NCBI GenBank assembly: GCA_964016885.1 | Contig: OZ024742.1 | Span: 118,854,001 to 118,918,000, forward strand | DNA length: 64,000 nt | Direction: 5' to 3' | Source of the DNA: Eledone cirrhosa | Lineage: Eukaryota | In this document: positions 38,990 through 40,640 of the stretch, in pieces | How the letters are laid out: every line of letters begins with the position of its first letter | Position numbering within the stretch: position 1 is the stretch's first letter | Translations under genes and position numbers: made by a program | The notes under the pieces: generated by a model | The model's input: the letters and a program-made list of their open reading frames with translations, nothing else | Told to the model about the DNA's origin: nothing | Databases searched by the model: none

Positions 38990-39478
38990 CAATTATAAAA
39001 CAGACAAAATACACCTAATTTTTCCTTCAAAGTCCTGACTGTACAGTTTCACTGAGTGCTATGCGTCCAGAGTGCAACTAAAGTGCACCAGCGCCATGAG
39101 GCTATCAACTTTTCAAGCGACTCCTCAATGAAAGGATGAATTCCTGAAATGACCACTACCAGTGAAAGATTCTCGGAAAGGAAAATTAAAACATGGTATA
39201 ACAGTCGCAGAAAAGAGGTAACATCTGGACGTTGGCAAGTAATATATTTGCTAGAAGCAACAGCCAGTACACGCCTATTTCACTTGATCAAAATAATAAG
39301 ATATACATACATATAGATACATAAGTATATATATATATTGTTATATATATGTTGCCAATAAGAAACACACACACCAGTTGCTTTCACTTCAATTTATTAT
39401 AATAAATTTATAAATTTAGGAATTTATAAATTTCCGGTTGGTTGGCTGGTTCCACAACCAGATGGTTGTTTATATATT

Positions 39479-39521
39479 ATCAAAGTTCTTTCGTCACACA
39501 TTCTGTGACCTCTTCAGTGAC
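39479..39521 (-). ncRNA. Mirror hammerhead motif (sense to the UNC-93-like pre-mRNA)
   Basis: Reverse complement of 40387-40429, with helix I GUCA/UGAU. Confidence 0.68.
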
Positions 39522-39949
39522 TGGGGATTCTTTTCTTTGTTTTTTGTGCCTCTCCTTTGTTCTGTCCTACGCCATCTTGTTTTTGTGTGTGTGTTGTGTG
39601 CTTAGTTTGCATGTGTTACATCCGGGTGTCTGTGTGTGTTTATATTCGTTTATTTATTTGTTTATTTATATGTTACTGGTTGGTTGTTTGTTCTATGTGT
39701 GTGTGTGTTTTCATTTTGTCCTTAATTGTAAGTTGTGATGTTGCTGTTCCACTCATGTTTTCTATTTAATTTTGGTTGTAATTCATTTATGTTTATTGCC
39801 TCTATGATTTGTCTAAACATTGCGTCTTTTCTGTGTGTAGATTCTATTTTTATTTCTATGTTCTCTAATTTACCCTTATGTTCTATTTTAGCATGTTGGT
39901 AGAGTACAGATGATTCTTTACTATCTTGAAGGTATAAATGAAAGGTATA

Positions 39950-40640
39950 AACTACATAAATGAAGACTGGCGAGACCTTCAAGATAGTAAAGAATCATCT
40001 GTACTCTACCAATATGCTAAAATAGAACATAAGGGTAAATTAGAGAAAATAGAAATAAAAATAGAATCTACACACAGAAAAGATGCAATGTTTAGACAAA
40101 TCACAGGGGCAATAAACATAAATGAACTACAACCAAAATTAAATAGAAAACATGAGTGAAACAGCAACATCACAACTTACAATTAAGGACAAAATGAAAA
40201 CACACACGCACATAGAACAAACAACCAGCCAGTAACATGTAAATAAACAAATAAATAAACGAATATAAACACACACAGACACCCAGATGTAACACATGCA
40301 AACTAAGCACACAACACACACACAAAAACAAGATGGCGTAGGACAGAACAAAGGAGAGGCACAAAAAACAAAGAAAAGAATCCCCAGTCACTGAAGAGGT
40401 CACAGAATGTGTGACGAAAGAACTTTGACAATATATAAACAACCATCTGGTTGTGGAACCAACCAACCAACCGGAAATTTATAAATTCCTAAATTTATAA
40501 ATTTATTATAATAAATTGAAGTGAAAGCAACTGGTGCGTGTGTTTCTTATTGGCAACATGACCTTCCCAAAGTATAACAATATCAGTTTCAACACACGTT
40601 TTCAGATAAAGAATCTTGCTAAACAAATTCAGAAACAAAT
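39950..40640 (+). mobile_element. Penelope-like element 3' end (GIY-YIG C-terminus + UTR with hammerhead), preceded by an inverted copy at 39349-39933
   Basis: INEDWRDLQDSKESSVLYQYAKIEHKG...RQITGAININELQPKLNRKHE resembles the PLE GIY-YIG C-terminal half. A hammerhead lies at 40387-40429. Confidence 0.75.
40387..40429 (+). ncRNA. Minimal type-I hammerhead ribozyme motif
   Basis: GUCA-CUGAAGA-G-GUCACA-gaaug-UGUGAC-GAAA-G-aa-CUU-UGAC: 4 bp helix I, 6 bp helix II, CUU triplet. Confidence 0.7.

Follow-up and report, generated by a model that had tools for sequence, protein, structure and literature searches.

A probable two-ended, head-to-head insertion of a Penelope-like element (PLE) forms a long hairpin in an intron of an UNC-93-like gene of Eledone cirrhosa

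Host gene and position of the hairpin

The window analysed here is a stretch of 64,000 nt of the genome of Eledone cirrhosa (contig OZ024742.1), and all positions are counted from its first letter. A search of the genome for the UNC-93 family matched the minus strand just beyond the window (L037), and an UNC-93-like gene lies on this strand. The closest relative protein, P0001, which its source names unc-93 homolog A-like, comes from Argonauta hians and shows 93% identity over exon 1. This protein maps to four stop-free exons (69309-68245, 54727-54592, 28971-28840 and 26349-26123), the first of which falls just outside the window, and the exons have GT/AG ends where these are printed. When exons 3 and 4 were searched alone, no Pfam match was found. 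An earlier, sequence-only reading of this DNA had placed a long hairpin in an intron of an UNC-93-like gene, and the mapping of P0001 confirms this location: the hairpin sits deep in intron 2, which separates exons 2 and 3, with about 14.0 kb between it and the donor and about 10.4 kb between it and the acceptor (Table 1).

The same intron contains 57 inverted pairs of at least 100 nt, including one of 1,095 nt at 97% identity. Among the 25 pairs shown, the hairpin studied here (39349-40559) ranks second in length and has the shortest loop. The 1,095-nt pair is formed by an RT element of LINE type (31152-32246 and 46645-47739), and a further pairing, at 90%, joins 47180-48210 to 61753-62783 and so spans exon 2. 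A second UNC-93-like gene was observed on the plus strand about 58 kb before the window (L038, 377-3406), and the position of its first intron is identical.

Table 1. Positions of the PLE insertion, its parts and the surrounding host exons in the window
Feature	Positions	Strand	Remarks
Coding exon 3, UNC-93-like gene	28840..28971	-	93% identity to P0001
Coding intron 2, UNC-93-like gene, holding the PLE insertion	28972..54591	-	25,620 nt, flanked by exons 2 and 3
Inverted 5'-truncated PLE copy (left arm)	39336..39933	-	Carries the C-terminal part of the endonuclease, the 3' untranslated pseudo-LTR and a hammerhead
Minimal type I hammerhead, sense to host pre-mRNA	39479..39521	-	Private C-to-U at 39479
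Junction filler	39934..39955	.	22 nt, non-family sequence
Main 5'-truncated PLE copy (right arm and 19 unpaired nt)	39956..40583	+	
Minimal type I hammerhead, antisense to host pre-mRNA	40387..40429	+	Identical to commonest family form
ORF start of next tandem PLE unit	40558..40642	+	ATG at 40558
Coding exon 2, UNC-93-like gene	54592..54727	-	91% identity to P0001

Structure of the insertion

The arms, 39349-39933 and 39975-40559, pair as reverse complements in a gap-free alignment of 585 bp that contains 14 mismatches (97.6%), and 41 nt separate them. The left arm, the size of the spacer and the near-identity of the arms had been described correctly before, whereas the right end had been set at 40560, one base too far. 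The spacer had also been said to continue the plus-strand reading frame. It is indeed free of stops in that frame, but only 39956-39974 (19 of the 41 bases) belongs to the element; because the other 22 nt are filler foreign to the family, the open frame through the spacer is partly an accident. The filler was absent from all 29 other fetched copies, and it consists mostly of short copies of its flanks, with 9 nt of the right arm's start and 9 nt across the left arm's end.

The whole PLE insertion is wider than its paired arms, extending from about 39336 to 40642, and (TA)n follows each arm. The left copy finishes at the short 3' end of the family, without a tail, and is followed by a (TA)n-like flank; its tip is irregular, with 13 nt near the tip swapped for 3 nt, and its assignment to the short-end class depends on an 11-nt match. 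The right copy has the long end, with a one-sided tail at 40584-40642 and then (TA)n. It begins within the GIY-YIG domain, past the YIG motif, and carries a premature stop at 40157-40159 and alterations in both His codons of the CCHH motif. The hairpin is composed of two 5'-truncated 3' ends of one PLE family, set head to head via the filler in a (TA)n site.

Identity of the PLE family

A search of the genome with the right arm returned 3,595 candidates, and the 40 of them that were scored showed 95-98% identity. In 29 of 29 other fetched copies the element sequence continues upstream of 39956, and most of these reach the YIG motif, the CX4CxxC linker and the RT, which upholds the earlier description of the arms as PLE 3' ends. 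In the longer copies, the RT motifs DKS and YVDD are followed by the YIG motif within one ORF, and the RT part of the family has 68 relatives at E<=1e-20. Two longer copies scored 22.0 and 22.7 bits against the Pfam GIY-YIG model PF01541 (cut-off 22.6), so that one of the two lies above the cut-off. No internal RT is left at this locus, and the arm peptide covers just the stretch past the YIG motif. The arm peptide alone had no match in Pfam. Against a PLE-endonuclease profile made from 31 of the 68 relatives, all of other families and chosen because their C-terminal half shows a clear YIG-type motif, it scored 41 bits for the right arm and 53 bits for the left, whereas none of 500 shuffles exceeded 10 bits; the GIY-YIG remnant that had been proposed from the letters alone is thus recovered by profile. 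The family is an endonuclease-bearing PLE with an RT and, at its C-terminus, a GIY-YIG domain.

Copies of the family have the CX4CxxC linker, a pair of Cys that separates the GIY half from the YIG half and, further on, two His, and (TA)n follows nearly all family ends. For the Neptune/Nematis type, PMC8557442 lists a CX2-5CxxC linker before GIY-YIG, a CCHH motif within it and (TA)n targeting. By its linker, CCHH motif and (TA)n targeting, the family appears to fit this type, an assignment made from motif criteria; the 68 RT relatives bear no clade names. The linker also sets it apart from Penelope/Poseidon, which are without one. Elsewhere in the window, at about 9907-10359 on the minus strand, lies the end of another PLE family, related to this one but older; its tail is similar (82%), and its hammerhead core has decayed.

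Family ends and recurrence of the fold-back

Copies of the family finish at one of two main 3' ends, which correspond to 40583 and about 40640 in the window, and (TA)n comes after both. Among 139 pieces, 51 had the short end, 76 the long end and 12 another. The ATG of the family ORF corresponds to 40558. At 15 of the 25 loci that hold the 5' part of the ORF, the pseudo-LTR and tail continue directly into the ORF; because the 3' end and the interval 40584-40642 run into the ORF at these loci, this interval is the PLE tail. The pseudo-LTR arises by partial tandem. Both 3' ends (40583 and about 40642) were seen to halt after one shared motif, short and AT-rich, with a match to the (TA)n target. 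As a separate observation, 5' ends of copies cluster at window 40305-40335, a region about 60 nt upstream of the hammerhead that holds 14 of the 52 ends from two samples, and the junctions of many short hairpins lie here; this cluster is possibly a transcription start in the pseudo-LTR.

The 42-nt hammerhead motif had 5,192 exact matches in the genome (2,621 forward and 2,571 reverse), while its reversed control had none. Among the first 100 matches listed, neighbours less than 6 kb apart comprised 13 minus-then-plus pairs, 1 plus-then-minus pair and no same-strand pair, with 0.2 expected per class; 11 of the 13 minus-then-plus pairs were fetched, and 2 of these 11 proved to be two adjacent insertions, each with its own fold-back. 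By extrapolation from these first 100 of 5,192 matches, which lie on one chromosome arm, the genome would hold several hundred double-hammerhead pairs. In the position-ordered loci L043-L072, which amount to 28 insertions once one duplicate and one partner are subtracted from the 30, 12 insertions were two-ended and inverted.

Over the 100 loci examined there were 30 distinct inverted pairs, in samples partly selected for being pairs (L073-L083) or for being long (L001-L030): 26 combined a long with a short end, 1 had two long ends, none had two short ends, and 3, including that of the window, were irregular-tipped. The rule of one long and one short end therefore holds for 26 of 27 classifiable pairs, and the window fits it with its irregular short tip. 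In addition, partner arms, the window excluded, had minor marker alleles in common in 100 of 134 cases vs 14% for random pairs. The pair counts, the end classes and the marker sharing argue that insertion itself creates the fold-back, with both arms drawn from one source and a strict end rule in force.

Changes in the window copy

Compared with the family majority, the right arm carries 8 private changes and the left arm 6, none of them shared and none compensatory, and each arm is nearer to locus L002 than to its partner. The arms are decaying independently and neutrally. Transitions make up 13 of the 14 arm differences, whereas their share in the family is 66% (846 of 1,281); this mild excess might point to retained pairing. 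At the polymorphic marker sites where a window arm leaves the majority, three of which are recurrent CpG sites, the arms agree in 0 of 4 cases, and two different template RNAs may have been used at this locus. We also looked for editing copied into DNA. Only 2 of the 14 changes are A-to-G on either strand, which leaves no imprint; across the family, rare A>G changes (82 of 27,006) and T>C changes (28 of 11,589) did not differ (p 0.35).

Hammerheads and the predicted duplex

Paired hammerheads had been proposed for the two arms, the sense copy at 39479-39521, and a minimal type I motif was found in each arm as claimed, with the catalytic core intact in both. A search with Rfam at gathering scores detected neither. 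The right motif has a helix I of 4 bp, CUGAAGA, one unpaired G, a helix II of 6 bp and GAAA, and its helix III consists of 2 bp with an AA loop; cleavage is predicted after 40425. In the sense motif, the private C-to-U change turns the outer pair of helix I into G-U, and helix I was absent from a 121-nt local fold of this copy and formed in that of the right copy. The features given for minimal hammerheads (min-HHRs) in PMC4209133 are present: the core, an unpaired base 9/10.1, G10.1-C11.1 and a helix I of 4-5 bp. Dimer formation is described as relying on a palindromic 15.2-16.2 and loop 3; here the 15.2-16.2 pair is G-C and loop 3 is AA, so that the helix III of a dimer would have two A-A mismatches. 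Moreover, the hammerhead pair yields no cis dimer, because either transcript strand has one sense copy only. A single min-HHR is described as having no detectable cleavage and dimers as having low activity (PMC4209133), and the hammerhead of an anole PLE is reported to cleave only with the protein of the element (PMC11167929). The sense hammerhead of the window thus probably has little activity to neutralise.

The folding of a 1,311-nt minus-strand RNA predicted the full 585-bp stem (-1000.7 kcal/mol) with the sense hammerhead buried, in line with the earlier expectation of a duplex of about 580 bp that masks this hammerhead. The predicted arm duplex contains 7 G-U pairs, 6 A-C mismatches and 1 U-C mismatch. 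However, any head-to-head fold-back, in whichever direction it is transcribed, has its antisense arm ahead of the sense hammerhead, so that the masking follows as a geometric by-product. Further hammerhead-like cores, with sequences that differ from this one, were noted near L031 3251, L116 3007, L127 2627 and L042 7493/7834, and one set among them is an inverted pair.

Origin of the hairpin

We consider it highly probable that a high-copy PLE inserted into the intron with two ends and has been decaying there since; the insertion likely took place in a single event and likely serves no function. The endonuclease of the element would cut both strands at (TA)n, and the AT-rich motif shared by both ends would permit annealing to this target. 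Reverse transcription would be primed from both broken ends, once per start site; these sites lie within the ORF start at a distance of about 58 nt. End-joining repair would then connect the two incomplete cDNAs, leaving the templated filler. Among the mechanisms, we infer this route of two-strand cut, twin priming and end joining with a modest preference; self-priming on an antisense template, which has been proposed for head-to-head junctions (PMC3846280), is the main alternative and may have operated instead. Upon transcription of the host gene, the arms would pair to a 585-bp duplex. ADAR would edit this duplex incidentally, as a bystander substrate, and the hammerhead buried in it is probably nearly inactive anyway. 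On the predicted fold, use of the duplex by ADAR or Dicer is plausible.

The sequence-only reading had suggested that the inverted arm neutralises ribozyme cleavage of the host transcript. In its fuller form, the arm would have been kept to cage an active intronic hammerhead and protect the UNC-93-like transcript, with ADAR editing possibly serving as a release switch. Such caging would suit the order of the parts, since the antisense arm comes about 870 nt earlier in the transcript than the sense hammerhead and the full predicted fold buries the latter, and it would suit the two intact catalytic cores. Tandem hammerhead retrozymes are also reported, in the abstract of a bioRxiv preprint, to be excluded from introns (10.64898/2026.07.22.740005), so that hammerheads can matter there. 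Nevertheless, the order and the masking are common to every head-to-head fold-back, and such fold-backs make up 12 of the 28 sampled insertions. The published silence of min-HHR monomers (PMC4209133) and the protein requirement of the anole PLE hammerhead (PMC11167929) argue against an active ribozyme, as do the 2-bp helix III with its non-palindromic loop and the weakened helix I of the sense copy, unformed in the 121-nt fold. The arms are also without shared or compensatory change. Thus, the idea of neutralisation is not upheld: the hairpin is an ordinary product of the family, with one sense hammerhead per strand and no compensatory change, and we regard caging as very improbable.

An equally slight chance is left to the possibilities that a solo copy was later palindromised by DNA-level fold-back repair or that two independent insertions came to lie side by side. 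In their favour, a templated junction filler suits end-joining repair, adjacent insertions do occur elsewhere (L076, L077, and the second family at 40657-41185), and the window arms share none of four minor markers. However, a DNA fold-back would duplicate the same end and flank, whereas the arms stop at two different family ends with (TA)n after each. The long-and-short rule, kept by 26 of 27 pairs, and the lack of target DNA between the arms also count against these possibilities. The least probable explanation of all, with a very small chance, is an assembly or library fold-back artefact. Palindromes beside (TA)n are difficult to assemble, and seven distinct DNA or unlabelled sequencing runs, together with one further run of the same sample, yielded neither a contig across the locus nor an empty-site joint, as is expected for a repeat whose reads swamp it; against this stand the 14 differences between the arms, their different ends, the unique filler and 29 other loci with the same architecture and different junctions. 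The two-ended insertion of one PLE family, made at integration, therefore remains the preferred explanation. A wider reading, which we hold to be tentative and somewhat unlikely, is that PLE integration itself generates double-stranded RNA in octopus: twin priming at two fixed starts would turn about four in ten insertions of the family into hairpins, at least several hundred in each genome, these would be a main built-in substrate of octopus hyper-editing, and the strict end rule would read out two-ended PLE integration.

Comparison with known systems

The PLE insertion unit has been described as an inverted 5'-truncated copy with a tail at one end (PMC8557442), and Pen2a_Av has an inverted pLTR and a tail that holds the first ORF codons (PMC3846280). 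The insertion in the window resembles the units of both sources in its head-to-head inverted truncated copy, its one-end tail of first ORF codons, its (TA)n target and the partial tandems of longer copies. However, its tail is about 58 nt long vs 30-40 nt in the published units, its junction has a 19-nt overhang and a 22-nt templated filler vs a clean palindrome, and, unlike those units, it is without internal RT sequence. The window locus is ordinary in that its insertion pattern has already been published for PLEs.

In the anole element Poseidon PAc, two RT start sites define the PLE tail (PMC11167929). Both PAc and the present family have two internal RT starts in the ORF start, with the interval between them as the tail, and both have AT-rich targets. 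Differences are that PAc is reported to start at sites non-homologous to the cut DNA, whereas the AT-rich motif of the ends here matches (TA)n, and that the PAc hammerhead lies over the ATG, whereas the hammerhead here lies about 130 nt upstream of it. The long-and-short pairing in 26 of 27 cases and the common source of the arms quantify a pattern that had been published qualitatively, and tie it to the two RT starts seen in vitro.

The hammerheads share with the min-HHRs of metazoan PLEs (PMC4209133) a short helix I, a long helix II, the unpaired base between 9 and 10.1, G10.1-C11.1, a tiny helix III and the arrangement as two motifs, one per strand and separated by some hundreds of bases, a distance given as 100-700 bp. 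In contrast, loop 3 here (AA) is not self-complementary, the motifs lie about 870 nt apart, and the motif is very uniform, with its 5,192 exact copies.

As in the ADAR-substrate repeats of other animals, namely Penelope in a lizard and Harbinger and Penelope in Xenopus tropicalis (PMC5625713, PMC10636886), the window offers a long near-perfect self-duplex with a short loop. Penelope undergoes heavy editing in lizard and frog, while the window duplex is a predicted ADAR substrate in a host group with strong hyper-editing; high dsRNA potential together with hyper-editing is described for octopus in the same sources. A literature search joining octopus or cephalopod, Penelope and editing, with most subscription papers outside its reach, found only these two papers, which in their available parts tie Penelope editing to lizard and frog. 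If the fold-backs are heavily edited, they would help to explain the dsRNA potential and hyper-editing of octopus (PMC5625713).

Neighbouring repeats

A second fold-back, of another family, was observed at 40657-41185, adjoining the PLE insertion across the same (TA)n. It has 149-nt arms, a 195-nt loop and about 36 extra nt on one arm. This family had 2,016 candidates in the genome, and 18 of the 40 scored hits are complete fold-backs. Its junctions differ between most copies, and the long arm stops at a nearly fixed point. Neither a canonical hammerhead core nor a PLE ORF was seen in 19 flanks. The fold-back is likely a non-autonomous PLE-type element.

A homeodomain-like peptide in the plus frame at 39140-39313 was considered and rejected, having no Pfam match; its DNA is an old repeat (39026-39297), of which 39 other scored copies show 72-83% identity. 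A tRNA-like Rfam match (31 bits) at 44608-44665 on the minus strand falls within a common SINE-like repeat, and at about 50,300-53,800 there are approximately three tandem 1.12 kb units of SINE-like pieces. The whole-window repeat scan was dominated by microsatellites, and a (TA)n array of more than 2 kb occupies about 22,250-24,450.
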